A DNA stretch of 64,000 nucleotides from Thermoplasmata archaeon (GTDB lineage: Archaea > Thermoplasmatota > SW-10-69-26 > JACQPN01 > JAJPHT01): contig JAXDQU010000079.1 of the NCBI GenBank assembly GCA_034667685.1, positions 1 through 64,000 on the forward strand, written 5' to 3'. Positions within the stretch are counted from its first letter, which is position 1; each line of letters starts with the position of its first letter. The notes under the pieces were generated by a model, which ran no database searches, was not told the origin of the DNA, and saw only the letters and a program-made list of their open reading frames with translations. Below, in pieces: positions 1-20,769 of this stretch. The position numbers and the translations under genes are program-made.

Positions 1-316
1 CCCCCATTGGGGGGCGGGGCGTGCCCCCGCCGGGTCCGGGCAGAGCCCGGCTGGGATGGCTTGGACTGGCAACGGGGCCTTGGCTACCGGCAGCCGCACA
101 AGCACCCGTTACAGGCGGCATCCTCGCTGCCGTCGTGTCGGGCGCGCGCACGCGACCGACCGTGGGGGGCTCCGGGGGGCACGCCCCCCGGTGGGAGGGG
201 ATTGCGGGGAGGGCAAAGCCCTCCCCACGAATCTTCGGCGCCGATAGGCGCTCATGATTGGGGGTTCGGGGGCCGTGGCCCCCGAGCGGGGGAAAGGGGG
301 CGGCAGCTCCCCTTCC
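1..316. other. Cluster of GC-rich hairpins, putative rolling-circle origin (dso/sso)
   Basis: Stems at 16-27, 36-50, 137-160, 172-191, 206-226, 266-285 and ~291-316, several preceded by G-runs. No credible CDS here. Confidence 0.55.
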
Positions 317-416
317 TAAAAAAAGTCGAAGCTGGGGGCTGGCTTAGACAGGCAACCCACTTCCAGAACACTCTAACAAAATCGCCCTTGGTCCATGTCA
401 GCAGTATGCAGACGAC

Positions 417-668
417 ATGACAAGGCATCTTGTAAGTCTCCTGCGCAAAACAGAGCAGGCCGCGCTTCGGAAGGAGATCATCGCCCGCTTGAACGTGGCA
501 GAATCGACGCTCCGAGAGTTCGCGGAACAGCAGCAGCTTGAGTACGACGCGCTGCCGCCGCCCTTTGTGGAGGCCGTCGTAAGCGCGTGCCTGAGCGGCG
601 TAGCAGACGCGCCCGATGAAGTACGCGGCCTGCGCCCCTCTCAAATCCGCGAGTCGGAAACGGAGTAG
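417..668 (+). CDS. Small helical hypothetical viral protein, possibly DNA-binding
   Basis: 83-aa ATG ORF with natural composition (IIARLNVAESTLREFAE could be an HTH). Confidence 0.55.
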   Translation: MTRHLVSLLRKTEQAALRKEIIARLNVAESTLREFAEQQQLEYDALPPPFVEAVVSACLSGVADAPDEVRGLRPSQIRESETE

Positions 669-828
669 GCGCAGCCGTCGCTCCGTCCGCATCGGATGGT
701 CATGGAGGGAGAGGGGGGACTGAAAGTTGTCGCGCGTTGCGTGACGCAAAACGGTCCCGAGAATCCCTGTCTGCTGCTCGCGCAGATAACAACGGGCGTG
801 CAGCCTGGCTCTCGGCCAGGTGGCCGCC

Positions 829-1161
829 ATGATGGAAACCACGCACACCGAATCTGACTCCGACCGCAATCCGAACGCCCCGCGCAGCCTCCGGGCGCGT
901 CTCGCGGCCAACAGGAAGGCCAGCGCGACGCGCCAGGACGCGGCCAACTTCGACATTCTGGACGCGGTGATCGGCATTTTCATCTTCGTGTCGATCATCG
1001 GTCTGGTCCCCGGCCAAATCCAGTCCGCCGTCGCCAACCTCACCGGCTTCCCCGGCGCGGGCACGCTGCTCAACCTCGTGCCCCTGCTGCTCGTGGCGAT
1101 CCTGGTGTACCGCATCTGGAACGGTCGCGGCAAGGGCAGCGCGCGCCGGAGCTACCGCTGA
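829..1161 (+). CDS. Major capsid protein, SSV1 VP1/VP3-like, with hydrophilic N-terminal propeptide
   Basis: Two hydrophobic helices (AVIGIFIFVSIIGLVP and TLLNLVPLLLVAILVYRIW), an NLT sequon in the loop and a basic C-tail. Matches SSV1 VP1 as I recall it. SD-like AGGTGG at 818-823; start at ATG 829 or 832. Confidence 0.8.
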   Translation: MMETTHTESDSDRNPNAPRSLRARLAANRKASATRQDAANFDILDAVIGIFIFVSIIGLVPGQIQSAVANLTGFPGAGTLLNLVPLLLVAILVYRIWNGRGKGSARRSYR

Positions 1162-1176
1162 AGGGGGACCCGGCGC

Positions 1177-1569
1177 ATGGTCACGGCGCGGTACACAACA
1201 GACCTTGACGGGGCGCACACCGCTCAGCCCAGCGGACCCACCGCGCCCGCGACAGACCCCAAGGCGGTCCGCTCGCGCCTCGTCGTCCCCCTTCTCAATC
1301 TCATCTTCGCCGGCATCCTCGACGCCCTGCTGACCCTCGTGGGGATCGCGCAGGGCGGGCGCGAGTTGAACCCCAGCGCCGTGTGGCTGCTCTCGCGCGG
1401 CCCGGTCGCCTTCGTCGGCGCCAGGGTCGCCACGCTGGCCCTCGTCGGCGCGGGCCTCCTGTACCTCGCCCCCTCCGCGCCGCGCACGGCCCGCGCGTGC
1501 GTCGTCGCGCTCGTCCTCTTCTTCGCCCTCGTGGACGCCTTCAGCCTCTTCCAGTTGGTGAAGCCATGA
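1177..1569 (+). CDS. DUF5658-like membrane protein
   Basis: Motif LDALLTLVGIAQGGRELNP with 3-4 TM segments. Confidence 0.7.
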   Translation: MVTARYTTDLDGAHTAQPSGPTAPATDPKAVRSRLVVPLLNLIFAGILDALLTLVGIAQGGRELNPSAVWLLSRGPVAFVGARVATLALVGAGLLYLAPSAPRTARACVVALVLFFALVDAFSLFQLVKP

Positions 1570-4184
1570 CCTCCCGCTCCCTCTCCGCGTTCTTCCTCGC
1601 GCTGCTCATCACGCTCCCCGCCCTCGTCCTCCTGACACCCACCGCCGCCGCGCTTCCCAACGGAAACGACCCGTGGCAACAGGAGATTTGGCGTCAGGCC
1701 GCCCCAGGCTCGTACTCGTCCTCGTACACCTGTGGCCCCTGCCCCAGCACGGGCACGACCGGAACCGCCTCCCTCCAGCCGGGCGACTACTATGTGGTCG
1801 TCAACGCCGGCTGTAACTCGTGCAGCGGACCTTTCAGCTACGTCCTCAACGGCGTCGGTCAAGTCAACTGGAACAACGATGGCAGCGTGTCCCTCTCCAG
1901 TGTCGGGGCGAGCGTCAGCGCGTACCAATTCCTCCAGTGGGGCGGCTGCTCCACGGGCTGCTATGCCGATCTCGCCGTGACGATCTCCAGCGCCGTCACA
2001 CTCTCGTTCAACGGCTTCAACAGCTTCGGCATGGCCTCGTGCGGCTTCGGGTGCAGCTACGGCGGCGGCACGCTGAGCACGAACGCGCTTAGCGGCTACG
2101 GCTTCGTGGGCGGCTTCTGGACGGGCTACTCGGGCGCGCAGAATTATCACGCCATGTGGTTCAGCGCGGCCTCCCAACTCAGCGAGGCCGGCATCCTTTC
2201 AACGCAGATGACGCGCACCCCCACGACTACCCAATGGACGTGGACCCAGGTTCAGGGCGACGTGCAGCTCGTCAACGCCGCGAACAGCAACGCCGGCACG
2301 CTCGTCAGCGGCGTGCAGAGCGTGACCGCCGACCTGACAAAAGGTGCGTTCATCGACACCACCGCGTTCCGCTGGGCGCCCAGCGCCGTTGCCAACGGAT
2401 GCAGCGGCGCGACGATCCAGCTTGCCGTCAGCGCCAACATGGCGTACCCCTGGAACGTCTCGGCGGAAATCGCCAACCTCTCCTTCCCCGTCACGCAAGA
2501 CGCCAACACGGGCGGAACGTCATTCGTCACCGTTGACTGGTCGAACGCGCTTGCGTCGAGCGACCGCGCCCTCACCTTCGGCACGCCCACGATCAGCGTT
2601 GCGGGCAGCACGCTCACAAAGGGCACCGCCGCGTACTACTCCAATTTCCCGCCCAGCATCGCAGCCGGCGGCACGTTCTATCTCCACTGGAACCTCCTGG
2701 GAACCGCCAACTGCGCCGCCGTCATGCAATACAACGGAGGCAACCCCTACTCGGGCGGCTCGATCTACACGGACAGCGGTACGGCATGGACCCAGCAGAC
2801 GGTACAGGACGTGAACCAACTCGTGATGAACGTCTATGGCGGCACCACGATCCTCTACACCGCCAACGAGGTACAGAAGGACGTGGGCGGCGCGTCGTAC
2901 CTCTACGTCTGCGAGGTACAGAAGGACGCGCAGCCCCAGCGGTACACGCTCAGCACGAGCTACGGCGGCGCCGCGCGCATCGGCAGCTATCAGGCCGCCG
3001 GCTCCAGCGTGTGCAACGGCGTGACCTCCACGAGCCAGCAGCAGACGATCCAGGAATGGCGCATCGGGTACGAATCCCAGGTGAACGTCACGCAGAGCGT
3101 AACGCTCAGCCTCAACGTAACGGGCGCCTCGCGCAACCTCCTGTACGTCGGCACGCTGGCCGGCACGCAGCCCACCCGGCCCAACGTTGCGTCCGGCTTC
3201 GGCTTCGCCGCGACCGGGTACAACACCATCACCGCATACAAGCTGTTCAGCACAAACGACTACTTCGCCAACCTCACCGTGCAGGTCCGCGCGTGCGCGC
3301 TCATCAACGCGGACGGATCATGCGGCGACAGCGTGACGGGCACCTACGGAGCGCCGATCCCCAACGGAACGTATGTCGGCACGGTAAGCAGCCTGCGCGC
3401 CTTCGCCGGTCAGTGGAACGCCTCGGGCTACTTCAGCGTGAGCGGCCAGGACGTGCAGGGCGGCGCCGTCGCCGTCACGATCTCTGCCTCGGGCTACGTC
3501 ACGGACTCAGGCGTGGTCATCAACGTGCCCAGCGCCCCCGGAAACTACACCGTCACGTTGACCCTGCTCCCCGCAGCGCAGGGCACGGGCCTGAGCGTCA
3601 AGCAGAGCAGCGTACAAGTGACGTTCAACGTCACCGCGCCGCAGTTCGTCAGTGGACAGGTCATCGCGGTCAGCGTCAACCGCACGCTGAACGTTGACCT
3701 GTGGGTGATCCTCTTCCAGCTTGACGGGAACGGGAACCCTCTCCAGGCGCGCGGCTTCACTCCGTTCGACTGGACGCCGAGCCAAACGAATCAGCTTGAC
3801 GTTGCATGGCCGGATGGACGCACGCTCAACGACGCCGACAGCGGCGGCTACGTCTTGGGCGTGTTCATCAAGGCGACGACCACGACCAAGGGCGTCCTTG
3901 TCGCGCAAGACCCCATCGGCGTCAATCAGGCCGCCCCGCGCGTCGGTACGTCCCTCCTGACCAACCTCAACGTGGCCGGGCAGAACGATATCTCCGCGCA
4001 AGCCCAGGTCAACGCCGCCGTCACAACGGGCCTCGTCACCGAAGCGACTGTTCAACAGGACTTCTTGACGTGGCTCGACTGGTTCCCGCGTGTCGATTTC
4101 TTCCTGCCGAACGCGGTCCTCTACCCGGTCATGTTCATGGTGGGTGCCCTCATGCTCCGCTTCGGGCGCAACGGGGGGCGCTGA
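1566..4184 (+). CDS. Large secreted beta-rich glycoprotein with C-terminal membrane anchor (putative receptor-binding/tail protein, 872 aa)
   Basis: ATGA overlap at 1566. Signal peptide, S/T/G/N-rich sequence, many NxS/T sequons, paired Cys, and a C-terminal TM followed by Arg. Confidence 0.8.
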   Translation: MTSRSLSAFFLALLITLPALVLLTPTAAALPNGNDPWQQEIWRQAAPGSYSSSYTCGPCPSTGTTGTASLQPGDYYVVVNAGCNSCSGPFSYVLNGVGQVNWNNDGSVSLSSVGASVSAYQFLQWGGCSTGCYADLAVTISSAVTLSFNGFNSFGMASCGFGCSYGGGTLSTNALSGYGFVGGFWTGYSGAQNYHAMWFSAASQLSEAGILSTQMTRTPTTTQWTWTQVQGDVQLVNAANSNAGTLVSGVQSVTADLTKGAFIDTTAFRWAPSAVANGCSGATIQLAVSANMAYPWNVSAEIANLSFPVTQDANTGGTSFVTVDWSNALASSDRALTFGTPTISVAGSTLTKGTAAYYSNFPPSIAAGGTFYLHWNLLGTANCAAVMQYNGGNPYSGGSIYTDSGTAWTQQTVQDVNQLVMNVYGGTTILYTANEVQKDVGGASYLYVCEVQKDAQPQRYTLSTSYGGAARIGSYQAAGSSVCNGVTSTSQQQTIQEWRIGYESQVNVTQSVTLSLNVTGASRNLLYVGTLAGTQPTRPNVASGFGFAATGYNTITAYKLFSTNDYFANLTVQVRACALINADGSCGDSVTGTYGAPIPNGTYVGTVSSLRAFAGQWNASGYFSVSGQDVQGGAVAVTISASGYVTDSGVVINVPSAPGNYTVTLTLLPAAQGTGLSVKQSSVQVTFNVTAPQFVSGQVIAVSVNRTLNVDLWVILFQLDGNGNPLQARGFTPFDWTPSQTNQLDVAWPDGRTLNDADSGGYVLGVFIKATTTTKGVLVAQDPIGVNQAAPRVGTSLLTNLNVAGQNDISAQAQVNAAVTTGLVTEATVQQDFLTWLDWFPRVDFFLPNAVLYPVMFMVGALMLRFGRNGGR

Positions 4185-5479
4185 CCATCGCCGCCCCCAT
4201 CCCCCACGCGGGCCGCACGCTCGCCCTGGTCCTCGTCGCTCTCGTCGCGCTCGCACCGATCACCGACGCGCGCACACTCCCGGTCCCCGACAGCGTACAG
4301 CAGACCGTGGACCTCGGAGAGATCACCTCGCAGACGTGGAGCTACGCCTTCAGCGCCCAATCCTTCGACACCGCGAGCGACGGGACCACGCCCACGTCAG
4401 TCCACTACTTCAACCAGATCGTGACCTACGACGTAGGCAGCGCCCCCGGCGGATTCTGGACCGCCACCATCGGCGGAACGTGGCTCGGCAACGTGTTCAA
4501 CGTCGCGCCCCCACCCACGCGCAGCTATCAAACGAGCGTCCTCTGGAACGGGACCGCACGGCTCAACATGACAACCACGTTCACGCTGGGCGGCGGGAGC
4601 GGCACAAGCGCCTTCGCGTGGCAAGTCTGCAATCAGGTCAACTACGCCTCCGGCGGGACCACCTACGGCGCGACCAAGGCGTGCGACTCGAAATATTGGG
4701 GCGGCAACCCCACGCACTTGTCCCACTCGTTCCACTTCGGCAACATTACCCTGGGCGGGCAGAACGTAACCGGATGGAGCGTCACGTTCACGGGCTCGCA
4801 CGTCGAGGACCAATCCTTTTCCTCGCTGGACCTTCTGGTGCCGAGCTCGAACGCACCCCATGCAACCGCCACGATCTCCAGCAGCGCGACGGCGATCAGT
4901 GGCGACCTCGCGCACGTCACCGTCGATTACTTGGCCGCGACCAACACGAATTACGCCGCCATCGACGCGGGCGCCATCAAGGCGAAGTGCGACGGCTTTG
5001 ATTGCCTCGCCATCAAGGCCGCCGATACCGTGTTCGGCGTCCTCGATCACGTCCTTACCCTGGTCTTTGACAAGCTCGGCACCGGCACCACGCAGGGCCA
5101 TGACGCCGCAGGCCGCGCCGCCGATGCCGTCACGAACATGGCGAGTATCTTCATCGGCATCCCCACGACGCTGACCGCCCTCTTCTTCCTGCACCCTGGC
5201 AAGTCGTTCCTCGCGCTCTCCGACTACCTGCTCATCCTGGGTATCGTCCGCTACGGCAGCAGCCCAATGGCCGAAGTCAGCGTGATCTGGATGACGCCCG
5301 TTCGCTTCTGGTTCGCCGTGGGGCGCGGGATCGTCGCCTTCTCCGTGTGGCTGTGGAGTCTCGTGGAACGCGCCTTCCAGGCGTTGCTCGACGCAAGCCC
5401 CATCACGCTCATGATTATCGGCGGCCTCGTCCTGGGCGCGGCCATCGGCGCGTTGATCGTCAAGCTCGCGGGGGGATGA
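4181..5479 (+). CDS. Second virion membrane protein: signal peptide, beta domain and several C-terminal TM helices (~432 aa; non-canonical start)
   Basis: Hydrophobic leader RTLALVLVALVALAP with no in-frame ATG/GTG/TTG close before it. CTG 4181 overlaps the upstream TGA. Confidence 0.7.
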   Translation: MTIAAPIPHAGRTLALVLVALVALAPITDARTLPVPDSVQQTVDLGEITSQTWSYAFSAQSFDTASDGTTPTSVHYFNQIVTYDVGSAPGGFWTATIGGTWLGNVFNVAPPPTRSYQTSVLWNGTARLNMTTTFTLGGGSGTSAFAWQVCNQVNYASGGTTYGATKACDSKYWGGNPTHLSHSFHFGNITLGGQNVTGWSVTFTGSHVEDQSFSSLDLLVPSSNAPHATATISSSATAISGDLAHVTVDYLAATNTNYAAIDAGAIKAKCDGFDCLAIKAADTVFGVLDHVLTLVFDKLGTGTTQGHDAAGRAADAVTNMASIFIGIPTTLTALFFLHPGKSFLALSDYLLILGIVRYGSSPMAEVSVIWMTPVRFWFAVGRGIVAFSVWLWSLVERAFQALLDASPITLMIIGGLVLGAAIGALIVKLAGG

Positions 5480-5676
5480 GCCTGAACCTCCTGTCCTACT
5501 TCTTCAACGCCGTCAACGTGTTCAACAGCGACCGCCCACGCCACCGCCGCGTCGATCTGATGCGGAGCGGGCGCCGCGCCTGGACCTGGGCGCAGCGCCA
5601 CCCCATCCCCGCGACCGTCGCCCTCGGCTTCGTCGCGCTGCTGATCCTCTTCGCGTGGCTCGCCTGGGGGCTCTGA
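5476..5676 (+). CDS. Small single-TM viral protein (66 aa)
   Basis: ATGA overlap; C-terminal hydrophobic helix. Confidence 0.7.
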   Translation: MSLNLLSYFFNAVNVFNSDRPRHRRVDLMRSGRRAWTWAQRHPIPATVALGFVALLILFAWLAWGL

Positions 5677-5678
5677 CC

Positions 5679-5945
5679 GTGGTGGACACCGCCTTCGATC
5701 CCTTCGTGCAACCCCTCGTGTACGCCGGGATCACGCTGGCCGCGACGATGGCAAGCCTCTGGATCGCGCGCCAGCGCGGCATCCTCGGAAAGCTCAGCGT
5801 GGGCTCCCTGCTCATCATCACCGCCCTATGGGCGGCCCTGCAAGACGTACAGCCCGCAGCCGCAACGTTCCGCTGGCTCGCCGTCCTCATCACGTCGGGC
5901 TGGGCTATCATTGTCCTCTATTCGCTCAAGAAGGACGGGAGGTGA
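5679..5945 (+). CDS. Small 3-TM viral membrane protein
   Basis: Three hydrophobic segments; start at GTG 5679 or CTG 5673 overlapping the upstream stop. Confidence 0.7.
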   Translation: MVDTAFDPFVQPLVYAGITLAATMASLWIARQRGILGKLSVGSLLIITALWAALQDVQPAAATFRWLAVLITSGWAIIVLYSLKKDGR

Positions 5946-5949
5946 AAAC

Positions 5950-6096
5950 ATAGCATACGGACGCAAGAAGTGGAGCCCCGGCTTCGCGCTCGGCTACCGC
6001 GTCGGCTTCCGCCGTGGCTTCAACGGCGCGAAGCGCGCGCCGGGCGCGTATCGCATCTACAACGGCCAGCGCCGCCGCTACGAGTTCAGATCGTAG
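5950..6096 (+). CDS. Small highly basic protein, putative genome-condensing (VP2-like) nucleoprotein, ATA start
   Basis: GGAGGTGA at 5938-5945 followed by ATA 5950. 48 aa with 13 R/K and 1 acidic residue; GF/GY-xx-G repeats. Confidence 0.6.
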   Translation: MAYGRKKWSPGFALGYRVGFRRGFNGAKRAPGAYRIYNGQRRRYEFRS

Positions 6097-6171
6097 CGTA
6101 GGCCAATTTCCCCGAGCAACACCGCGCGCCTTAGCTTCGCTGCTGCCGCGCGGAATAGGAGACACAACACA

Positions 6172-6756
6172 ATGGCACTCTGGTCATGGATCAAAGACAA
6201 GCTCGGCAGCGGTGGAGAACGTGTCGTCGTCATCTGGAGCCGCGACCATCACGTTGAGTTCGTCCCGTGCGTCATCGACCCACTTCTGCGCCTCGTGCGC
6301 TCCGGCGCGGGACAGTCCTGGCCCCGGCCCTCGTTCGACCCGACACCGGACGGCAAGGCAACGTTCTACCTCGCGGCGGGAGACAAGATCATCCCGTGGC
6401 CCACGCGCGAGAAGCCCGCGTATGACGTGATGGACGACGGCACGCGCATCGAGATCACGCCCGAATACCTCGACCAACTCACGCGCGACAGCGACACCGA
6501 GGCGTGGCTGCGCGGCGCGCGGGGAATGTCCGTCATGGACCGTCTCATGCACCTGGGCGCGGGCGCCGCCCTCGGCATGGTCCTGACCTTCTTCCTCCTG
6601 AAGCTCGTCGGCTTCGTCGGCAACAAGGTCAGCAGCGGCAGCGGCACGACCGTCACGATTTCCAACACGACGGCCAACGCCACGGCGGTAGCCCCTGCCA
6701 TCATCCTCCACGCGCTCCACGTCGGCGCCCTCGCGCTGGGTGGGTGGTCCGCATGA
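6172..6756 (+). CDS. Viral membrane protein with C-terminal TM segments
   Basis: AGGAG SD; 194 aa; soluble N-domain followed by hydrophobic helices. Confidence 0.75.
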   Translation: MALWSWIKDKLGSGGERVVVIWSRDHHVEFVPCVIDPLLRLVRSGAGQSWPRPSFDPTPDGKATFYLAAGDKIIPWPTREKPAYDVMDDGTRIEITPEYLDQLTRDSDTEAWLRGARGMSVMDRLMHLGAGAALGMVLTFFLLKLVGFVGNKVSSGSGTTVTISNTTANATAVAPAIILHALHVGALALGGWSA

Positions 6757-6992
6757 TCCCCCTCGCCCGCTTCCGCATCTACTCCCGCACGGGCAGCGCG
6801 AAGGCGTACCTCAAGATCGACGGCACGCCCCCGACCCACGCATGGGTCCGAGGCTGGCGAGACGCCACGGCCTTCCTGACCCACAAGGACGCGGAGGCCG
6901 CCCTCCACGCCGCCCAAGCCCTCGAACCCGACCGCCCCATGTGCGTCGTCATGTGGGGGACGCGCCAGGCCCTTCTCCCCGGAGGCCGGTAG
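6753..6992 (+). CDS. Hypothetical viral protein (79 aa)
   Basis: ATGA overlap with the upstream gene; abuts the next ATG. Confidence 0.65.
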   Translation: MIPLARFRIYSRTGSAKAYLKIDGTPPTHAWVRGWRDATAFLTHKDAEAALHAAQALEPDRPMCVVMWGTRQALLPGGR

Positions 6993-7349
6993 ATGCCCGA
7001 CCCCGCCGAGCAGGCCAGCGCCGACTCCCACCAGAAGATCGTCCTGGGCTTCCGCAACCCCGAGGACGCATGGCTCAGCCAAGCCAGGATCGAGCGCGGA
7101 GACGCCCTCGTGTGGGGCATCTTCCTCGCCCGCCACGCGCGCCGCGCCAGCCGCAACGCCCACCGCGTTCTGATCGCCACCAAGACCGCCCTCGCCACGC
7201 GCAGCGAGGACGCATGGGGCAGCCACGAGGCCGCCGACGTGGCGAAGCTCCGCGTCGGAGGCCCCGCCAGCGCCCTCGACCAACTGCTCGGCAAGGAACC
7301 GCCCCCCGCCGAGACAGAGCCCGCGTCCCCCTCGGGGGGATCGTCCTGA
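6993..7349 (+). CDS. Hypothetical viral protein (118 aa)
   Basis: GGAGG upstream; TAG-ATG adjacency. Confidence 0.65.
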   Translation: MPDPAEQASADSHQKIVLGFRNPEDAWLSQARIERGDALVWGIFLARHARRASRNAHRVLIATKTALATRSEDAWGSHEAADVAKLRVGGPASALDQLLGKEPPPAETEPASPSGGSS

Positions 7350-7606
7350 AGGTGGAGATCCAAAGCGGGCACGACCTTGAGTCCGATTGGGACCGCGAGC
7401 TCGACGCCACCCTCCGCGCGTGGTCCACGTTCCTCAAGGATCACGCCGCCCAGGTGGACCACGCCCCCGGCCTGCTCCTGCTGATCCGCGCGCAACTGCA
7501 CGCCGCCCGCGCCCTGCTCGACGCCTACATGACGCGCGGCGACGACCCCCAGCGCGACACGCGCGCCCCCTGGTGGCAGCGCCGGGAGGACCATGCCCCC
7601 CGATGA
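7346..7606 (+). CDS. Hypothetical helical viral protein (~86 aa)
   Basis: Fills the operon gap; start at CTG 7346 (CTGA overlap) or GTG 7352. Confidence 0.55.
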   Translation: MKVEIQSGHDLESDWDRELDATLRAWSTFLKDHAAQVDHAPGLLLLIRAQLHAARALLDAYMTRGDDPQRDTRAPWWQRREDHAPR

Positions 7607-7886
7607 GGCCGGCGCCGGCCTCACGCCCCAGCAGCGCGCGGACCTGTTCTGGAACGCAGCGGGCGCGACCGCCGGCCTTCTCTTCGGCATGATCGGCCAG
7701 GAGTTCAGCGAACACGAGAAGTGGACCACGGGCGCGAGCCTCTACCTCGTCCCCGCCGGCCTGCGCCTCGCCGTCAGGATCGCGGGCTGGATCGTCTGCG
7801 CCAGGATCGTGTGGAAGGCGTGGCGGCAGGCGGACGCGGCCCTGGACGCCACGCCCGCGCCCATCGAGGACGGGGGCACCCCATGA
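7593..7886 (+). CDS. Small 2-TM viral protein
   Basis: GGAGG SD; two hydrophobic segments; ATGA overlap with the ATPase. Confidence 0.65.
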   Translation: MPPDEAGAGLTPQQRADLFWNAAGATAGLLFGMIGQEFSEHEKWTTGASLYLVPAGLRLAVRIAGWIVCARIVWKAWRQADAALDATPAPIEDGGTP

Positions 7887-9055
7887 CGACGCTGGCGCCC
7901 GTTCCGCCGGGGGAGCCCACGCCGCGCCGGCCCTGGACGGGGCGCGCGCTCCTGGGACGGAATTGGGAAGCCAACCGCGAGTACGCCACGCAAATCCTGA
8001 GCGCCGCGTACAACCAGATCGCGGACAAGCCCGCCGAGAATTGGGCCTTGTGGCAGGGCGTCCGCCGCAAGCTCACCGCCGTTCTCACCGAACGCTGGCG
8101 CGCAAGCGGCCTGCGAACCGCGCGCATGTACCACGACGCGCTGATGAGCCGCGTTGCGCCCCTGGAACCCAGCCGCAAGCCCGGTGAACACGTCGCCCTG
8201 GTCCACGCGCTGCTCACCGACTACAACGACCCGTTTGCGGAACACTGTGAGTACCGCCACGACAACGACGGCAACGTACACCTTGAGATCACCGGGCACA
8301 CCGGCATGGCGAAAAGTAGCTGTGCTATCAGCATCGCAGATTGGCTTTCGCCCATCGAACCCGCGCGCCTGCGGGATCACGTCAACTTCGACCTGAGCGA
8401 GCTGCACAAGCGGCTCAAGGGCAAGCGAGCCCGTGAGACGGTCATTCAAGACGAATACCTCGCGCTGAGCGGCGAAGGCGCGCGCACCGACCAAGCCCGC
8501 TTCGCCAATCTTGAGGACACGCTGCGCGCCAGCGGCGTCAATCTCTTCGTCCTCTCACCGCGCCGCCAGGATCACGCCACCATGCAGGCACGCCTCGAAG
8601 CCTTGGCGTGGAACCGCGCGCAGCGATGGACCGGCTTTCTTGTGTGGGTCGAGGACACGCCCTTGGGAATGCTCAGCGTCCCGTGGTGCCGCCCCGAGTT
8701 GTGGGCCGAATACAAGGCGTTCAAGGCCGCCAACACCGACCGCACCCTGAGCGGCGCGTTCCGCGACGAACGCCATATCGCGCGTACCGGCCTTCAGGTC
8801 CTTGACGATGAGCGCGTAATCCGCTACCTTACGCAGATCGTGGCGAAGCCGAAGAAGGCCACCATTGAGGAAGCCCTCACGCACTTCTGCCCCATGATGC
8901 TCAGCGCCACGCAGAAGGGCCAGGTCGCGGACTTCATCTGGTTCGCCGCCACCGAGTTGAACCGCTTCGGCGCCGAGTTTGAATGGTTCTTCGGCCTGCC
9001 CCCCAACGACGGGCTGCGCGCCGTCGCGGACGCCTGCCGAAAGACGGTGGCCTGA
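7883..9055 (+). CDS. P-loop ATPase, Zot/pI-like morphogenesis or packaging ATPase (390 aa)
   Basis: Walker A variant GHTGMAKS, Walker B VIQDE, downstream TLRASG with a candidate arginine finger. Confidence 0.75.
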   Translation: MTTLAPVPPGEPTPRRPWTGRALLGRNWEANREYATQILSAAYNQIADKPAENWALWQGVRRKLTAVLTERWRASGLRTARMYHDALMSRVAPLEPSRKPGEHVALVHALLTDYNDPFAEHCEYRHDNDGNVHLEITGHTGMAKSSCAISIADWLSPIEPARLRDHVNFDLSELHKRLKGKRARETVIQDEYLALSGEGARTDQARFANLEDTLRASGVNLFVLSPRRQDHATMQARLEALAWNRAQRWTGFLVWVEDTPLGMLSVPWCRPELWAEYKAFKAANTDRTLSGAFRDERHIARTGLQVLDDERVIRYLTQIVAKPKKATIEEALTHFCPMMLSATQKGQVADFIWFAATELNRFGAEFEWFFGLPPNDGLRAVADACRKTVA

Positions 9056-10161
9056 TGGCGCTCCACTGGCCCACGCAAACCCGATGGGTTGACGATCTAC
9101 GCGACGTCGCCCCCGCCGCCCTCGACATGTGGAACCGCCACACGCGCGCATGGGGTGGCCACCGCTCTCTGACGCGCTTCCTGAGCGAGCACTACCCCGC
9201 CGAGTGGTCCCGCGTCCGCGAGTGTCGCGTCAAGTGGGAATGGTACAGCGGCACCGGCCCCCAGCGCAAGTACCGCGTCGAACGCGAGCCCTGCCGCTGC
9301 CGCCCGTTCTGCCCTGCCTGCAACAACCAATGGCAGAACGAGCGCGCACGGGGCGCCCTCAAGGCGCTGCGCCGCGTCACCCCCGGCAACAAGCCGCCCC
9401 TCGCGTTCATGCTCACCCTCGCCCCGCGAAAGCACGAGGCCCCAGGCAGCGAATGGCAAACCATCGCCGCCGAACACCACCGCGCGTACATGCGCGGAAT
9501 CTTCCGAGGCATCGAGGAATGCTTCGGGGAAGGAATCGGCGCCTTCGCCATCTATCAGCACTACGGCGAGAAACCCTTCGTCCTCACCCACCCGCACGCG
9601 CATTTCATCCTCAGCGGGTGGATGCTCCGCGACGATCACCCAGCCCGCACCCCGTACTATGACATGAGCGGCACGGGCGGCCAACGTCTCCGAGAAGCCA
9701 TCCGTTGCGGCATCGAACGCGAGGTAAGCCACGGCATCAAGATTCCAGGGATAGCATTCCTCAACGCGCGCATTGACAAGGTGGAGGACGAACCCGAACG
9801 CCTCGTGCGCCTGTTCCGCTACAACTACCGGGAGTTGATCGACCCGACCAAATGGAAGTACCCCCGCGACTCCGCAGTTGTCAGAATCGAGAATTACCAC
9901 GATCCACACGACGTTGCAGAAGTCACGCCGGCCAAGCTGCGCGCGGCCCTCGAAGAATACGGCCAGCGATACGGCAAGTGGGGCCAACCCGGAAGCCGCG
10001 TCACCGACGCGCGCTTTGGCATCCTCCGCGACAGCACCATCAGCGACACGCAACGCAGGATGGCCCCCGATCTGGACCACCGCGACGATTGCGTGTGCCA
10101 CCGCTGCATGATCTGGAGCGCCCCCTACGACGGCCAGGACGACGCCGCGCCCCTCGCGTAG
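9055..10161 (+). CDS. HUH rolling-circle endonuclease (Rep), IS91/Y2-transposase-like (368 aa)
   Basis: TGATG overlap. Zn motif C...CRCRPFCPAC, motif I FMLTL, QHYG...HPHAHFILSG (HUH), motif III LFRYNYRELI, ARFGIL, and a C-terminal HxxxCxCxxC. Confidence 0.8.
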   Translation: MALHWPTQTRWVDDLRDVAPAALDMWNRHTRAWGGHRSLTRFLSEHYPAEWSRVRECRVKWEWYSGTGPQRKYRVEREPCRCRPFCPACNNQWQNERARGALKALRRVTPGNKPPLAFMLTLAPRKHEAPGSEWQTIAAEHHRAYMRGIFRGIEECFGEGIGAFAIYQHYGEKPFVLTHPHAHFILSGWMLRDDHPARTPYYDMSGTGGQRLREAIRCGIEREVSHGIKIPGIAFLNARIDKVEDEPERLVRLFRYNYRELIDPTKWKYPRDSAVVRIENYHDPHDVAEVTPAKLRAALEEYGQRYGKWGQPGSRVTDARFGILRDSTISDTQRRMAPDLDHRDDCVCHRCMIWSAPYDGQDDAAPLA

Positions 10162-10167
10162 CCTCTC

Positions 10168-10920
10168 CTACCGGCGCCGCGCCCACGCGAGCCCGACGAC
10201 CGCCACGACGATCCACGCCACCGTCACGCCCGGTACGGTGTGCGTCTCATCGCTCACGCTGGGCGCGGGGTACGTCCCCGAGATCGTGAAGGACCCCGGC
10301 GCGGCCCCCGACGCGCACGCCTGGACGAACACAAGCCCCTCAGTCTTGGGGTCCACCGTCGAGTTGAACGCCTCGCCCCCGCGCTTCTGTACCGTCAGGT
10401 TGGACGACAGCAGCGCGAACGCCACGCCCGTCCCGTTCGCGCGGACCAACGCCGGCTTTTCCATCCCGTCCAGCGTGTAGAGGTACGCCTTGCAGGCCCC
10501 AGGCCCCAGCGTGTCGTTCAACTCAACATAGGGGGGCGCCTTGTCGAGCGGGAGGTTCGTCATCAGGTCGTTCCGCGCCGCCATCAGGACGCCCGTGCCG
10601 TTCTGAACCGCGAGCGTTCGCGTCGGGTCCTGGGACGGCACGACCTGATAGCCGCTCACCTCGAACGGATGCAAGTGGAGGTTGTAGTCCGAGATAGCGA
10701 TTCCAACGTGCGACGTGTCGAGGTCCGCGCCCTTGTCGAACGCGGAGAAGTAGAGGATCAGCGAGCTACCAGAAAGTGAAAGAGAAAGAGAATCGCCCGC
10801 AGCGAAGGGCGCGAGCTTCCCCTCCGTGATCGTGTTATCAGCGGCGTTCGCCGCGCCGGTCATGTAGGGAAAGAGCCCTCCTGCTGCGAGCAGAAGGAGC
10901 GTCACAAGGGCGCTCCGCAT
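10168..10920 (-). CDS. Secreted protein with PGF-CTERM-like sorting tail (cargo)
   Basis: Signal peptide MRSALVTLLLLAAG; C-terminus VPGVTVAWIVVAVVGLAWARRR. Confidence 0.75.
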   Translation of the reverse strand: MRSALVTLLLLAAGGLFPYMTGAANAADNTITEGKLAPFAAGDSLSLSLSGSSLILYFSAFDKGADLDTSHVGIAISDYNLHLHPFEVSGYQVVPSQDPTRTLAVQNGTGVLMAARNDLMTNLPLDKAPPYVELNDTLGPGACKAYLYTLDGMEKPALVRANGTGVAFALLSSNLTVQKRGGEAFNSTVDPKTEGLVFVQACASGAAPGSFTISGTYPAPSVSDETHTVPGVTVAWIVVAVVGLAWARRR

Positions 10921-10937
10921 GGTTCGTCCGCTCCGCT

Positions 10938-11987
10938 TCAGGTCCACGTCAGCGCGCGGTTGAGCCAGCCCGTGTCGTCGTGGTACTCCTGGAGGCAGAC
11001 GGAACACGCATACGAATCGTGGTCCATGCGGAAGTACATGTAGGCTCCCAGGGTCCCCGGCACGTTGCCTTGCGCCGCGTAGTTCAGGGTGCCCGTGTAG
11101 GTGTGGCCGCTGCTGACGAACGTGGAGGTCGCGCCGTAGGTGTCCTGATCCCAGGTCGGGTCAGACCCCATCGTGTCCGTGGAGCGGAGGTTCATGGGGC
11201 TCGTCTGCGTCCACGACACCTGGGCGCTGGGGCCTTCCTTGCCGACGCTGTACCCGTAGGAGCCGGTCTGCGCGTTGACGAACGCGGGCTCGTAGTCGCC
11301 CATGAACGTGTTGCCGCTGGAGCGCACGCCAAGGGCGGCGTGGTACACGTCGGAGTACATGTGGTACGGACAGCAGTTCGTGTCACCGTTGCCGAACCAC
11401 TGGGACGACGTAATGTAGTAGCGATACGTCGGGTCGTTGTCGTTGTCGATCTTGTACCACGTCACGACGACGCGCCAGTGGCCGTACCGGACTTCCTGGG
11501 ACGCGAGGACCGACTTGGAGGGTTCGAGGTTCGGGTGAACGTTCGTGTCCGGGACGACGGGCGGCACGTTCGCCGGCATCGGGAGGTCCGGCACCGCGAG
11601 CTTGGCCGCCGAGGGAACGCCGACGCTCAGCGTCCACGAGTGGCCGCCGGAGGCGAGGTTGATCTCGCCCGGCGCGGGCGCCATGAAGCCCGCCACGGTG
11701 GCGCTGCCGTCCTTGTCCGCCGTGCCGGAGGCCAGCGGCGTGTTCAGCGGCCCGGAAGTGATCGTGAACGGCGCGGAGGGGGCGAGCCCTTCCATCGTCA
11801 GGTCCACGAGCTCGCCCGCGACCAGGGGGTGCGCGAGGCGCGGCGTGCCGGCCATGAGGTCCACCAGGGCCACGGGGCGGCTGGGGTCCTGGGGCAGCGC
11901 GGGAACGTCCGCGCTGGCGAGGGTGGTAGTCAGGCCCGAGAAGGCCGCAAGCAACAGAAGCGCGAGAAGCGCCATCGAGGTTCTCAT
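10938..11987 (-). CDS. Secreted beta-rich hypothetical protein (cargo)
   Basis: AGGAGA SD; signal peptide; Pro-rich linker followed by a Tyr/Thr-rich domain. Confidence 0.75.
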   Translation of the reverse strand: MRTSMALLALLLLAAFSGLTTTLASADVPALPQDPSRPVALVDLMAGTPRLAHPLVAGELVDLTMEGLAPSAPFTITSGPLNTPLASGTADKDGSATVAGFMAPAPGEINLASGGHSWTLSVGVPSAAKLAVPDLPMPANVPPVVPDTNVHPNLEPSKSVLASQEVRYGHWRVVVTWYKIDNDNDPTYRYYITSSQWFGNGDTNCCPYHMYSDVYHAALGVRSSGNTFMGDYEPAFVNAQTGSYGYSVGKEGPSAQVSWTQTSPMNLRSTDTMGSDPTWDQDTYGATSTFVSSGHTYTGTLNYAAQGNVPGTLGAYMYFRMDHDSYACSVCLQEYHDDTGWLNRALTWT

Positions 11988-12170
11988 CGTGTAGTCTCCT
12001 GAGAGTCCCGTAGAGCGGCGCGTTACCCCGCCAACAAGCTCCCCGCCGTAGCTAACTGCTACCGTAGCATAAGCGCATTGGCGCTGAAGTGAATCCGATG
12101 CACAACAAGTCGAAAAATCCCCGAGAAAAATCACACTGAGCCGACGCGCTGCGAGTCGTCGCCTGCTAAA

Positions 12171-12674
12171 CTATTCTGGTGAATTGTTGTGAAGCCCCGA
12201 GTCAGGCTCCTTCGTCAACCTCCCTTCATCGTTCAGTTCGGTTACGCTACGCTTGGCGTCGGCACGTTCGCAAGCCTCGCAATCCCTTGTGATGATCCCG
12301 TCCGGCGCAATCGGAATCCAGAGCCCGCTTCCGTAGGGTGTGGCTCCGCATAGCGCCGTGCCGCTCCATGACCTCGTTCTCTTGCTGACCGGACGACCCA
12401 GGCGCACCCGATGGGCGTAGAAGTCGGCGCCGGTCGAGTAACAGCGGACGACGCGACCGGGCGCAAGCTCGCGGCGCCAAGACTGGTCCTTCGGCCCGAC
12501 CTCGCCGCCGCAGATGATCCTGAGCCCCGTTGCTTCGGAGTGTCCGTTGATCCGCGTGTGGATCGTGCGCCTTTCTTCCTGGCTAAAGACGCGCTCGGTC
12601 GGCTTGCGACCGCAGCGGTAGCACACTTGATCTTCTTCTGGATCGGGTGCCGGCTCCGTCCATCCCTCGCTCAC
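12171..12674 (-). CDS. Zn-finger-containing hypothetical protein
   Basis: CYRCG, ALCG...CEAC; GTGA overlap with the upstream gene. Confidence 0.6.
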   Translation of the reverse strand: MSEGWTEPAPDPEEDQVCYRCGRKPTERVFSQEERRTIHTRINGHSEATGLRIICGGEVGPKDQSWRRELAPGRVVRCYSTGADFYAHRVRLGRPVSKRTRSWSGTALCGATPYGSGLWIPIAPDGIITRDCEACERADAKRSVTELNDEGRLTKEPDSGLHNNSPE

Positions 12675-12853
12675 GAGGCGGCCCCCTCGTCGCTCGGCTC
12701 ATTGGCGAACAGCAGCGCGAGGCAAAGCTGCTCGTGGGCCGACTCAAGCGCGGCGAGGTCGAGGCGAGAGGCCACGCCCCCGCCGTCCAGCCTGTCCCTG
12801 GCGGCGATCATCAGGGCTTGAATCTCCAACGGCTCCAGTTCCACCGAAACCAT
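12671..12853 (-). CDS. Small hypothetical protein (60 aa)
   Basis: AGGA SD before ATG 12853; helical; coupled to the next gene. Confidence 0.55.
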   Translation of the reverse strand: MVSVELEPLEIQALMIAARDRLDGGGVASRLDLAALESAHEQLCLALLFANEPSDEGAAS

Positions 12854-12933
12854 AGCGTCCTGCGGTGGCAGAATGCTACGGTAAGGGGAAAGGGTTTGCG
12901 GCTTCAACCCGTTGCGCCACACGAGGGCGAGGC

Positions 12934-13257
12934 TTGGAGGACATTCTCAGCCGGCCCCGCGTCTGCCGTCTCATTGTCGAATTGAGGAAGGTTCACCCAA
13001 AGCCCATGACCGCCACCCAGGCGATGCGCGCGACCGGCTACTTCTCGCGTGACCTGGGGAAGCTCCTGCGCGATTGCCGGGAGTGGGGCCTTGTGTCCGT
13101 CGAATCGCGCGTGCAAGGCAACGCCGAACCCAAGGCGATCAGCCTGACGCCCGAAGGCGTTGAGTCCGGCGACGTGCTGATGCGCTTCGAGAGCTTGGCT
13201 CTCAAGGCTCGCAGCCGCGCGCCGCCCATCGAGGACGAACCCGACGACGGCGATTAG
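12934..13257 (+). CDS. Winged-helix transcription regulator (MarR/ArsR-like)
   Basis: wHTH pattern ending GLVSVE...ISLTPEG; TTG start inferred; divergent from the 12853 gene. Confidence 0.7.
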   Translation: MEDILSRPRVCRLIVELRKVHPKPMTATQAMRATGYFSRDLGKLLRDCREWGLVSVESRVQGNAEPKAISLTPEGVESGDVLMRFESLALKARSRAPPIEDEPDDGD

Positions 13258-14774: not shown

Positions 14775-15001
14775 CTTCTCGGCCCGCGGGAGGGCGCCGA
14801 AGGGCCTTGGTTCCTCCGGTCCTGCTGAACCCTGCAACCTCCCGGTTACGTCCCATTTACGTTGTTTGGAGGAAAGTTGTGACGCGGTTTCAAGGCAGCC
14901 CAAAAGCCTATTCCATCGAGCCCAACGAAAACTTGGAGACACGTTCGCAAATCGAACGTCGCCAAGGTTATTGCGACTCTACGCGCTCTTGCGCCGATCC
15001 C

Positions 15002-15445
15002 ATGATGCGGTTCGGCTTCGCGGTCCTCGCGGTCCTCGTCCTGGCCGTCCCGCCCAGCGCGGCTGACGGGATCGACCCCCACGCGCCCGTCCTCGCCATC
15101 GCCTCCACCACGGGCAACGCCGTCGCCGTCTCCTGGGTGCCCGGCGCCGAGGCCCCCGACTACTTCAACGTGTACGGCATGGACAACGGAACCCGGACCC
15201 TCCTGGGAACCGGCGTCACCGCGAACCACGCCGAGGTCGCATGGGGCTTCCCCAGCTACGAGGTTACAGCCGTCACCGGCACAACAGAAACCGCCGCACT
15301 CGTGGCGGTCGCCTTCCTCACGGATATTTGCCGCGTTGAGGTTGACGACGGCCCCCCGCCGACCGTCAACGCGGGCGGCTGCACGCCGGGCCTCCCCGCC
15401 AAGGGCCATCTGGAAATCGACGCCCGCACGGGCCTTGTTGAGTGA
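15002..15445 (+). CDS. Small secreted FN3/Ig-like protein
   Basis: Signal peptide; VSW...YFNVYG...YEVTAV FN3 pattern. Confidence 0.7.
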   Translation: MMRFGFAVLAVLVLAVPPSAADGIDPHAPVLAIASTTGNAVAVSWVPGAEAPDYFNVYGMDNGTRTLLGTGVTANHAEVAWGFPSYEVTAVTGTTETAALVAVAFLTDICRVEVDDGPPPTVNAGGCTPGLPAKGHLEIDARTGLVE

Positions 15446-15449
15446 ACGG

Positions 15450-15542
15450 CTACGGCTCGCGGTAGCCGCATGACCGACAGCCCGGCCCGCCCGCGCAAAG
15501 GCTCAGCGGTTGCCCGCACTCCGGGCACGATGGATCGTCCAT
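15450..15542 (-). CDS. 30-aa CPxCG zinc-finger microprotein
   Basis: GGAGG SD, then MDDPSCPECGQPLSLCAGGPGCRSCGYREP. Confidence 0.6.
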   Translation of the reverse strand: MDDPSCPECGQPLSLCAGGPGCRSCGYREP

Positions 15543-15778
15543 GCCCCTCCAGCACCCCACCCGGCGCGAGATGGCGCCGGGGAGGGTGCGCTGAACCCAC
15601 CACGGACACGGGTGGACAGAAACCAAAGCCGCCCAGGGGAGGAGGGGCGGCTGCGGAGCAAAAGAGGGAAGCCACCGATTCTTGGCGGGCAGGAAGTGGC
15701 TGCACGGGTGGCCGGCGCGCGGCGCCGGAAGAATCGGCGCCCCGCGAGGGGCGCACCCAACCCCGGCGCGACCGGCGA

Positions 15779-16105: not shown

Positions 16106-16380
16106 GGCTGCACCCTCGCCAGGATCGCGGGATCGACGGCCCCGAGGACCGAGCGCCAAGGGTGCATCATGCGGCAGGCATCGCAGGCGAACGCCGCGCG
16201 AGTCCACGGCACGGCCAGGACGGGCGTTCCCCGGTAGCGGCAAACGCGCACGTCCAAGGGGCGTTCAACGCTGTGGCCGCACGCGAGCCGCAGCCGGTCC
16301 CCTCGCCCCGTGCCGACGACGGCGCGGAATGCTCCCGCGCACCGGGGGCACGCCCGCGCCCACGTCGCACCGTGGCTCAT
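16102..16380 (-). CDS. Cys-rich Zn-finger protein coupled to the integrase
   Basis: CPRC, LACGH, CDAC; ATGA overlaps at both ends. Confidence 0.6.
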   Translation of the reverse strand: MSHGATWARACPRCAGAFRAVVGTGRGDRLRLACGHSVERPLDVRVCRYRGTPVLAVPWTRAAFACDACRMMHPWRSVLGAVDPAILARVQP

Positions 16381-17480
16381 CGCTCGGCCTCCTTCGCGGA
16401 TTCGACCGGGCGCCCGTTGCCGATCCCCAAGAGCCCGCGCTTCGCCAGGGCTTCAATCGTGGAGGAAACGGCGTCCGCGATGGCTTGCTTCGGGTCCTCA
16501 CGGATGCGCGCCCCCAGCGCGTCCACGTTGGCGTCCCGTCTGATCCGCTCCTGAAGCTGGCGCTTGGACAGGTGGATATAGCGGGTCGGCATCGTGCTTG
16601 TTGCGCTCCAGCCGAAGAAGGGCCGCATTTGCGGCTCGTTCCAGCCGGCATCAGCGGCGCGCGTGGCCCGCGTGTGGCGGAACAGATGCGGGTGAATGTG
16701 CCGCAGGCCGGCGGCCTTCGCCAGCATCTTCAACAGCTTGTGAATGGCGCCGGGGTACATGCCGTCGTCCCCGGAGCGGTTGACAAAGAGGCGGGCGTTC
16801 GGGTTCTGAGCGTCCGGGTGGAGCGCAATCCAGGCGCGCAGGGCGCCCGCGCACTCAATGAGGAAGATGCGGCGCGGCCCGGTCTTGAGGTCCGGCGCGG
16901 CAGGGTCCATCCCCACCGTGACGGCCCCCTCGTTGTCGAATTGCACGTCGCAGAGCCGCACGGCCAGGAGTTCGCTCAGCCTGAACCCGGAGTCCCAAAG
17001 GAGCCAAAGGATCGCCACCCGGCGAGCCGCCACGGCCTCAACGTTGGTCGTCTCGACAGCCGCCCGAAGCAGCGCCCGAAACTCGTCCTCCGAGATCGGC
17101 GTCACGTCTTTCCAGTCGAGGCGGGCGTCACGCTTCAGAGCCCGGCGGATCGCCCTCGGGCACTCGTCATCGTTGCACCACGAATAGTACGCCTTCAGGT
17201 GCGCCGCGAACGCGCTTGCGCTTCCTGGCGCGTGGCTCCGGGCGTACTCGTGCAGGCAGTTGGTCAAGGTGTCCGGCGTCAGGTGGCCGTAGGGCGTCCC
17301 GTTGGTCGCCCCGTCGAGGTAGAGCAGGCTGCGGACGGTCAGTTGAACCGTCGTCTGCTTCCGGCCTCGGGCCAGCATGGTCTTGACGTAGGCCCGTACC
17401 GAGTCCTGATTCCCCGCCGACACCCGGCGGATAAGCTCATCTGTCGCCTTCGGGTTCGCGTAGCCGTGAGACCTTCGCAA
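16377..17480 (-). CDS. int: Tyrosine recombinase/integrase
   Basis: DSGFRLSE (R), KTGPR (K), HPHLFRH (HxxR), FGW, PTRYIH (Y); N-terminal core-binding domain present. Confidence 0.92.
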   Translation of the reverse strand: MRRSHGYANPKATDELIRRVSAGNQDSVRAYVKTMLARGRKQTTVQLTVRSLLYLDGATNGTPYGHLTPDTLTNCLHEYARSHAPGSASAFAAHLKAYYSWCNDDECPRAIRRALKRDARLDWKDVTPISEDEFRALLRAAVETTNVEAVAARRVAILWLLWDSGFRLSELLAVRLCDVQFDNEGAVTVGMDPAAPDLKTGPRRIFLIECAGALRAWIALHPDAQNPNARLFVNRSGDDGMYPGAIHKLLKMLAKAAGLRHIHPHLFRHTRATRAADAGWNEPQMRPFFGWSATSTMPTRYIHLSKRQLQERIRRDANVDALGARIREDPKQAIADAVSSTIEALAKRGLLGIGNGRPVESAKEAER

Positions 17481-17513
17481 TAGGACACTTTCCTACGGCG
17501 TAGGTATTCTCTT

Positions 17514-17588
17514 GGGCGCGTAGCACAGTCCGGATAGTGCACTGGCCTTCTAAGCCAGGGGTCGCGGGTTCGAATCCCGCCGCGCTCG
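17514..17588 (+). tRNA. tRNA-Arg(TCT)
   Basis: Full cloverleaf: acceptor GGGCGCG/CGCGCTC, anticodon TCT at 17549-17551, TTCGAAT T-loop; no intron and no CCA. Confidence 0.95.
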
Positions 17589-17733
17589 CTGACCGCAGGT
17601 CAGCGGACGCGGCGTCTCGCCACCAAGACGTGCGACTTCGTGCGCTGCGGCGCACTCCGTCGCACGTTTGGCGGCAATCCCGCCGCGCTCGCTACCGCGG
17701 GTCAGCGGACGCGGCGATCCCACCGCGCTCGCT
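17573..17733 (+). repeat. Repeated copies of the tRNA-Arg 3' end plus downstream hairpin
   Basis: 17573-17614 repeats at 17676-17716 (one indel, one substitution); partial third copy at 17717-17733. Confidence 0.85.
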
Positions 17734-20643: not shown

Positions 20644-20686
20644 TCGGGCACCTTCCGGATGGATTGGGCGAGCAGCCCGGGATGCG

Positions 20687-20700
20687 TATATACCGTTTTC
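20687..20700 (-). promoter_or_regulatory. BRE-TATA promoter of gdhA
   Basis: GAAAACGGTATATA on the minus strand, ~45 nt upstream of the start. Confidence 0.6.
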
Positions 20701-20769
20701 GACCACGCCGCGCGGGCACGACAAGGTCCGGCTAGGCAGTTGATGGCCTTCGCCCGCGTGGGACATCCG

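Follow-up and report, generated by a model that had tools for sequence, protein, structure and literature searches.

Capsid proteins of the VP1 type have been described from many lineages of archaea, and VP21 of His1 (Halspiviridae; Pfam His1_capsid) belongs to the same superfamily of hairpin major capsid proteins (MCPs). For the Thermoplasmatota, few viruses are known to our knowledge. One survey lists only 30 provirus regions in total across 5,041 genomes of Thermoplasmatota and 2,275 of Nanobdellota (PMC13573593), and the non-subscription literature that we searched contained no description of a hairpin-MCP virus of this phylum. In SSV19, VP1 is a curved hydrophobic hairpin whose loop forms the outer surface and whose two termini form the inner surface; the structural report attributes this fold also to the hydrophobic alpha-hairpin capsid protein of APBV1 (Clavaviridae), which is rod-shaped (PMC9351363). 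A study of SSV1 states that mature VP1 begins at a Glu residue conserved in all fuselloviruses, that the leaders preceding it are poorly conserved and of very different lengths, and that deletion of the SSV1 leader abolishes infectivity (PMC5748691). VP1, VP3, and VP4 of SSV1 are reported as N-glycosylated at N-x-S/T (PMC9608457), and the splitting of the SSV-type integrase upon integration is given as a trait of the Fuselloviridae (PMC4158269). The spindle-type halovirus DHSV-1 is described in a preprint as carrying a hairpin MCP, an ATPase, and an HUH rolling-circle endonuclease, with no polymerase (bioRxiv 10.1101/2025.02.15.638363).

Here we analyze the first 64 kb of a contig (C79) from the genome, 3.48 Mb in 124 contigs, of an uncultured Thermoplasmatota archaeon of soil; this 64-kb stretch is referred to below as the window. 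A sequence-only reading had proposed that a short gene near the start of the window encodes an SSV1 VP1-like MCP with a cleaved propeptide. We consider it likely that this gene, ORF 829-1161, encodes the MCP of an integrated archaeal virus and that its product and fusellovirus VP1 are distantly homologous.

A short gene encoding a predicted two-helix protein

The ORF lies on the + strand, runs from GTG 820 (or ATG 829/832) to the stop codon at 1159-1161, and encodes up to 113 aa; residues are numbered here according to the 113-aa form. The entry in the public protein collection (P0001) is the 110-aa form that starts at ATG 829, and the sequence AGGTGG is located 5 nt 5' of that codon. Residues 40-100 read DAANFDILDAVIGIFIFVSIIGLVPGQIQSAVANLTGFPGAGTLLNLVPLLLVAILVYRIW, identical letter for letter to the peptide quoted in the sequence-only reading, which is thus encoded by this frame. 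The GC content at third codon positions is 0.90 in the capsid frame vs. 0.78 in a long antisense ORF at 252-1151. The coordinates of this gene, its parts, and its neighbors are collected in Table 1.

Table 1. Features of the integrated element in the window
Feature	Position	Strand	Basis or remark
Non-coding G/C-run-rich stretch, contig start	1..300	.	13-nt perfect inverted repeat 16-28 / 175-187
VP1-like hairpin protein gene	829..1161	+	110 aa from ATG 829; alternative start GTG 820
K/R-rich N-terminal leader, putative propeptide	829..936	+	Ends before D40; putative cleavage
Hydrophobic helix 1, residues 43-67, GIFIFVSIIGLVP	946..1020	+	Hydropathy; AF2 helix 22-74
N73-L74-T75 sequon, helix 1/loop boundary	1036..1044	+	Aligns with NNLT of SSV1 VP1
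Hydrophobic helix 2, residues 78-100, with TLLNLVPLLLVAILV	1051..1119	+	Hydropathy; AF2 helix 80-102
Basic C-terminal tail NGRGKGSARRSYR	1120..1158	+	K/R-rich, no D/E
DUF5658 membrane protein	1177..1569	+	PF18902, E 1.5e-9, above cut-off
872-aa protein, signal-like N-terminus and C-terminal anchor	1566..4184	+	Hydrophobic segments 3-31, 845-864
Second secreted, multi-anchored protein	4190..5479	+	Start codon uncertain; weak homolog in G006:C410
P-loop ATPase	7883..9055	+	Walker A GHTGMAKSS, Walker B VIQDE; AF2 pLDDT 89
Rep-like protein	8983..10161	+	Cys cluster, HPHAHFIL, YNYRE; start may be ATG 9055
Intact tyrosine integrase	16377..17480	-	PF00589, E 6.1e-18
tRNA-Arg (TCT), right border of element	17514..17589	+	33 nt from integrase

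A charged leader of about 35 aa had been claimed; we measured 36 to 39 residues, with 7 K/R and 4 D/E, ahead of residues 40-100. At the other end, the 14 residues that follow I99 include five K/R and no D/E. Between these ends, the protein has the two hydrophobic helices and the short loop of the VP1-type fold (segments 43-67 and 78-100), an arrangement that it shares with fusellovirus VP1. The AF2 model, built from the family alignment, placed a 5-residue loop between the two helices at a modest mean pLDDT of 64.7, compared to a loop of nine residues in SSV19 VP1. Comparison of this model against Foldseek PDB, BFVD, and a wide VIA-align search (best Z 6.5) returned only generic helical hairpins and did not discriminate among folds.

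Similarity to fusellovirus VP1

The SSV1 VP1 precursor is a 144-aa protein (L005:12567-13001) that contains EATNIGVLLGLFIFILIGIVLLPVIVSQVNNLTSG...ATLLNLVPLF...VAYKIYKD. The SSV1 record agrees with the version of this sequence given in the sequence-only reading, so the motifs listed there are all shared: both proteins have G-x-FIF, a Pro that follows helix 1, the NLT sequon, and an identical string TLLNLVPL, the last as part of an LL-x-LVPL pattern, and these features fall in register. Pairwise BLASTP against SSV1 VP1 gave 32.3 bits and an E-value of 3e-7, with 27 of 67 positions identical (only ~40%). The alignment starts at the SSV1 cleavage site and covers the two helices, with the sequon in register, and it sets TKG|EATN of SSV1 against TRQ|DAAN, so that D40 stands opposite Glu66 of SSV1.

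When 177,635 distinct PDB sequences were searched with phmmer, SSV19 VP1 (7xdi_A) was the first match (E 0.026), and the next matches were G protein-coupled receptors (serotonin receptors) at E-values of at least 0.38; no chain from APBV1 or another clavavirus appeared among the matches at E ≤ 10. The profile built from the 10-sequence family alignment (A1, described below) also placed 7xdi first, at E 0.11, but below the single-sequence score. Among the 38,880 PHROG families, the sole match at E ≤ 0.01 was phrog_11172 (E 0.0077; three of the 10 family members match it), which we identify as the SSV VP1 family because SSV1 VP1 itself scores 1.9e-73 on it. An alignment of A1 with a profile of eight fusellovirus VP1/VP3 sequences (A2) by hhalign gave a probability of 94.1, an E-value of 1.3e-7, and a score of 47.3. 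Reversed profiles, which preserve hydrophobic blocks and composition, scored 20.9 and 20.1, and the maximum over 100 column shuffles was 23.2. When the A2 HMM was run on the whole genome in six frames (32,588 ORFs of 50 aa or more), ORF 829-1161 ranked first (E 8.3e-4, 20.2 bits) and the runner-up reached E 0.078. The same profile also gave weak, low-bias matches (E 0.08 to 0.1) to three non-membrane ORFs, including C98:12336-13526 and C71:74-610. Unlike in fuselloviruses, a VP3 paralog was not found; the family had one match in the genome.

Other searches marked the limits of this similarity. The window protein had no match at E ≤ 10 to either Pfam VP1_VP3 (PF06281, cut-off 25 bits) or Pfam His1_capsid (PF25665, cut-off 27 bits). 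For PF06281, on which SSV1 VP1 scores 69.5 bits, none of the 10 family members matched at E ≤ 1, and for PF25665 a single member of the 10 matched, at E 6e-4. Judged by these profiles, the protein is outside both families as defined. A tblastn search of 50,697 phage and archaeal-virus records returned nothing at E ≤ 10. Alignment to the His1 capsid protein had been suggested as a check; pairwise BLASTP against His1 VP21 was not significant (E 1.5) and lends no support to a His1-like nature of the element. The accepted link between the fusellovirus and His1 capsid families is itself no stronger than the present one, as SSV1 VP1 matches His1_capsid at no better than E 0.053. Feature neighbors in the ESM Atlas included His1_capsid (0.84) and VP1_VP3 (0.83) clusters, which we treat as leads only.

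Convergence would be another source of such similarity; the gene product would then be an ordinary membrane protein with two passes, carried by an integrative, plasmid-like element and without a role in a capsid. Short hydrophobic proteins do inflate similarity: unrelated membrane families were matched among the relatives (Peptidase_A22B at 0.0024 in 3 of 10, RDD at 0.0046 in 2 of 10), Pfam noise from such families lay at E-values of ~0.002 to 0.02, structure searches returned nothing beyond generic helical hairpins, and the other genes of the element are ORFans with no viral hallmark. Against this stand the composition-keeping reversed-profile controls, at 20 to 21 vs. 47.3, the first rank of VP1 in three independent libraries (PDB, PHROGs, and genome ORFs), and a match that covers both helices, the sequon, and the acidic residue of the cleavage site in register. 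We therefore regard convergence as improbable. Several independent routes agree in pointing to a VP1 relationship, each at modest significance, and at the level of sequence comparison the resemblance to VP1 exceeds chance. The proposal of an SSV1 VP1-like capsid protein is thus supported, in that profiles of fusellovirus capsid proteins match the protein with modest significance.

A small and rare protein family

An exhaustive HMMER search of 1.84 billion representative proteins at E ≤ 0.001 matched 11 proteins, nine of which are small relatives of 87 to 144 aa with 31 to 58% identity; the other two (P0010 and P0012), which are long and repetitive, were dropped as low-complexity matches. The family alignment A1 comprises 10 sequences. 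A word-index homology search returned the protein itself only and, with a profile, four relatives that were already known. Pattern searches for the family gave 505 matches in IMG/VR and 39 in the genome contig collection, and none was confirmed in either. The family was present in 2 of the 21 species genomes of the host's class in our collection and in 2 of the 401 genomes of the phylum sample; both occurrences are the window's own genome and one genome of the same genus. The copy in this genus relative (L014, G012:C221, 754-1065, - strand) is truncated to its C-terminal half, with the sequon changed to NPT and nucleotidyltransferase/HEPN-like genes adjoining it. This homolog has probably decayed.

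Every one of the 10 members has two hydrophobic segments and an Asp at the position of D40, and the core that runs from this Asp through helix 2 hardly varies in length (56 to 61 aa). The leader before it is K/R-rich throughout and varies from 14 to 73 aa. An N-x-S/T sequon at the end of helix 1 is found in 9 of the 10, residues L83, L84, L86, V87, P88, and L89 are invariant or nearly so, and the tails of the nine members that have one contain three to five K/R and no D/E. As in fusellovirus VP1, an acidic residue thus occupies the SSV1 cleavage position and a variable, basic leader precedes it. The window protein reproduces the fusellovirus pattern of leader and sequon with Asp replacing Glu, which suggests, by analogy, that it may be cleaved and glycosylated in the same way. 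It differs in that its mature N-terminus would be acidic, unlike that of fusellovirus VP1, and in that it ends in a 13-aa basic tail, where SSV1 VP1 has a short KIYKD end.

Class III signal-peptide (type IV pilin-like) proteins would likewise begin with a basic leader and continue into a hydrophobic stretch, and the sequence-only reading had named a better match to such pilins as the outcome that would count against it. None of the 10 members matched a pilin or class III family at E ≤ 1. The residue at -1 of D40 is variable (Q, S, N, D, A, T, or H) and not the G/A of a pilin site, the leader is 36 to 39 aa here and 14 to 73 aa in the relatives, and the protein consists of two hydrophobic helices with no globular domain. 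A pilin-like identity is, in our judgment, very unlikely.

An integrated element bordered by a tRNA gene

The capsid gene belongs to an element that spans 17.5 kb or more. There it is the first of a cluster of genes that share one direction and partly overlap, and is followed by the DUF5658 gene, the gene for the 872-aa protein, and that for the second anchored protein, just as the VP1 gene of fuselloviruses heads a structural gene cluster. The DUF5658 gene begins 15 nt after the capsid gene; an ORF of SSV1 (7122-7430) likewise belongs to PF18902 (E 3.3e-9). The 872-aa protein, homologs of which occur on contig C109 of the same genome and in G009, is a candidate tail or receptor-binding protein. 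Its sequons are not enriched (10 observed vs. 10.9 ± 2.9 in shuffles), and we therefore do not call it a glycoprotein. On a 1.3-kb metagenome contig (L015), a gene homologous to that of the 872-aa protein comes directly after the capsid gene. The DUF5658 stop codon and the start of the 872-aa protein overlap in ATGA (1566-1569), and the ATPase and Rep-like genes overlap in TGATG (9053-9057) if the latter starts at 9055; these overlaps suggest translational coupling. The integrase, the tRNA, the tight cluster, and the synteny on L015 give the capsid gene a provirus context, in which the virion roles of its neighbors are putative.

Further along the element, the ATPase family has the consensus Walker A GPTGMGKSS and Walker B VIQDE, and the ATPase model gave weak RecA/DnaB/Zot-N-like fold matches. 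The alignment of the Rep-like protein (A6) contains a conserved Cys cluster, HPH, and Y-x-x-R-E; Pfam Rep_1 was reached only at E 0.34, and a Rep-like function may be assigned on these motifs. The Rep-Arvir/DUF7845 family (PMC13107129) was considered for this protein and set aside, there being no such Pfam match. PDB sequence searches with the large protein, the ATPase, and the Rep-like protein returned nothing useful, no element gene other than the capsid gene had a match in PHROGs, and nearly all of the remaining element ORFs are without a family. No polymerase family, including protein-primed ones, was found in Pfam scans of the ORFs of 1-17,500, from which the left part of the element is absent.

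At the right end, the junction of integrase, tRNA, and host genes is bridged by one contig of a second soil study. The 3' end of the tRNA-Arg gene with its downstream bases (17573-17614) is repeated twice just downstream, at 17676-17716 (42 nt at 95%) and 17716-17733 (18 nt at 89%); these repeats look like attachment sites left behind when elements previously integrated on the opposite side of the tRNA. The left end of the element is at or beyond the contig start. We found no left attachment site: neither the tRNA region nor the contig start recurred anywhere in the 124 contigs. A 26-nt match between window positions 110-135 and contig C78 was discarded as an attachment site; it is not tRNA and looks like chance. 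The first 300 nt also contain smaller hairpins, and the MAG contig terminates there, as does a Logan contig; the stretch may be an origin, a terminal structure, or merely hard to sequence.

GC content is 65 to 68% up to ~16 kb and at least 70% beyond. The genome contains a full-length archaeal SSU match and an RNaseP_arch match above the cut-off, and its ELP3 is 72 to 75% identical to proteins from Thermoplasmatota MAGs. The closest ELP3 relative (75%) is in a MAG titled "Proteobacteria bacterium" (L018, JAJPHT010000020.1), although the entries ranked next to it are Thermoplasmatota; this record is probably mislabeled.

Public runs and sibling elements

In the likely source run (X1), a Logan contig spans exactly 24-17632 at a depth of 9.45, compared to 11.3 for the host flank; with provirus depth close to host depth, there was no sign of an active element. 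No circular form was seen in the contigs of public runs. The second soil study (X2) contains the element without differences in the eight pieces listed, and in a variant from a sediment run, 36 of the 40 listed differences (with 83 further) fall at third codon positions. The run depth, the bridged junction, and the third-position differences together indicate that the element is integrated, single-copy, and under purifying selection. There were no RNA runs among the listed holder runs.

The ATPase has 24 homologs and occurs in 11 of the 401 phylum genomes, with four copies in the window's genome. The three further loci with an ATPase relative (C78:15040-16080, C109:22761-23720, and C42:47915-48922) indicate that this genome carries several related integrated elements. 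An integrase homolog with 41% identity lies on contig C78 as well (C78:20709-21857), and the homolog of the 872-aa protein is on C109. None of the loci with ATPase, Rep-like, and integrase homologs has an A1-like gene. A VP1-like gene is likewise absent from two sibling elements with the pair of DUF5658 and large-protein genes, one on C109 and one in a genus relative. We conclude that the ATPase/Rep/integrase backbone is not tied to this capsid type. A secreted, C-anchored protein of ~150 to 200 aa is encoded upstream of the DUF5658 and large-protein genes at C109 ~20,500-21,600 (- strand) and at L061:12592-13668.

These siblings bear on whether a true VP1 homolog here might form a particle that is not a spindle (rod, pleomorphic, or vesicle-like) or might belong to a defective or domesticated provirus. 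The secreted, C-anchored protein stands in place of the capsid gene in related elements of the same genome and genus, one genus relative has only the truncated remnant, and the provirus is at host depth with no circular form seen. The published description of the rod-shaped APBV1 assigns its MCP and SSV19 VP1 the same hairpin fold, and shape is not in the primary sequence (PMC9351363). The closest sequence matches, in contrast, are to VP1 of spindle viruses and not to APBV1, with no clavavirus chain recovered from the PDB, and the capsid gene is intact, has the high third-position GC noted above, and is identical in two soil studies. We consider this alternative rather unlikely. Our preferred reading remains the MCP of an integrated virus, and the lineage is probably a new and rare one of spindle type; the shape of the virion, spindle or other, is not readable from sequence.

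Comparison of the element with described viruses

Beyond the capsid gene, the element departs from the fuselloviruses. Its integrase gene is an intact, tRNA-adjacent one of 367 aa, in contrast to the split SSV type, and a tblastn comparison of 20 element proteins with SSV1 recovered VP1 only, with no homolog of B251 or VP4, although divergence may hide relatives. Judged by its integrase, the element is not a fusellovirus. No element gene other than the capsid gene matched an SSV1 or His1 protein. By description, the gene set of DHSV-1 resembles the MCP, P-loop ATPase, and Rep-like genes found here, the last recognized on motifs only, so the gene set of the element has a precedent.

Discussion

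If ORF 829-1161 encodes the MCP, the path from precursor to particle may be pictured as follows. The precursor would insert into the host membrane as a hairpin, its K/R-rich leader and basic tail remaining in the cytoplasm in keeping with the positive-inside rule and its NLT loop exposed outside, open to N-glycosylation. A protease would then cut off the leader before the invariant Asp40, as before Glu66 of SSV1 VP1. The mature 74-aa subunits could pack through their helices into helical strands around the DNA, as in SSV19, with the basic C-terminal tail lining the interior and contacting DNA, and the neighboring anchored proteins might form a tail or receptor-binding end.

A broader reading, which we offer tentatively and regard as doubtful in its entirety, joins three ideas: that this is the first recognizable spindle-type (VP1-like) virus from a Thermoplasmatota class that is mesophilic, rich in GC, and found in soil, that capsid genes have been exchanged between virion types, and that the C-terminal tail serves the DNA. 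Under such an exchange, a common backbone, or the pair of DUF5658 and large-protein genes, would have been joined to different leading structural genes, a VP1-like hairpin in this element and the secreted, C-anchored protein in its siblings. The long basic C-terminal tail might then take the DNA-binding role given to the N-terminus of SSV19 VP1.

As a relative of a spindle-virus coat protein, the window protein would extend this virus group to a little-studied host lineage. It may also serve as a natural variant for studies of VP1 maturation, with Asp rather than Glu as the cleavage-site residue, an acidic mature N-terminus, and a basic C-terminal tail. The family is very rare, since 1.84 billion representative proteins include just 10 small members and IMG/VR none, and because it is both rare and missed by standard virus finders, it provides a new seed profile for soil viruses of this kind.
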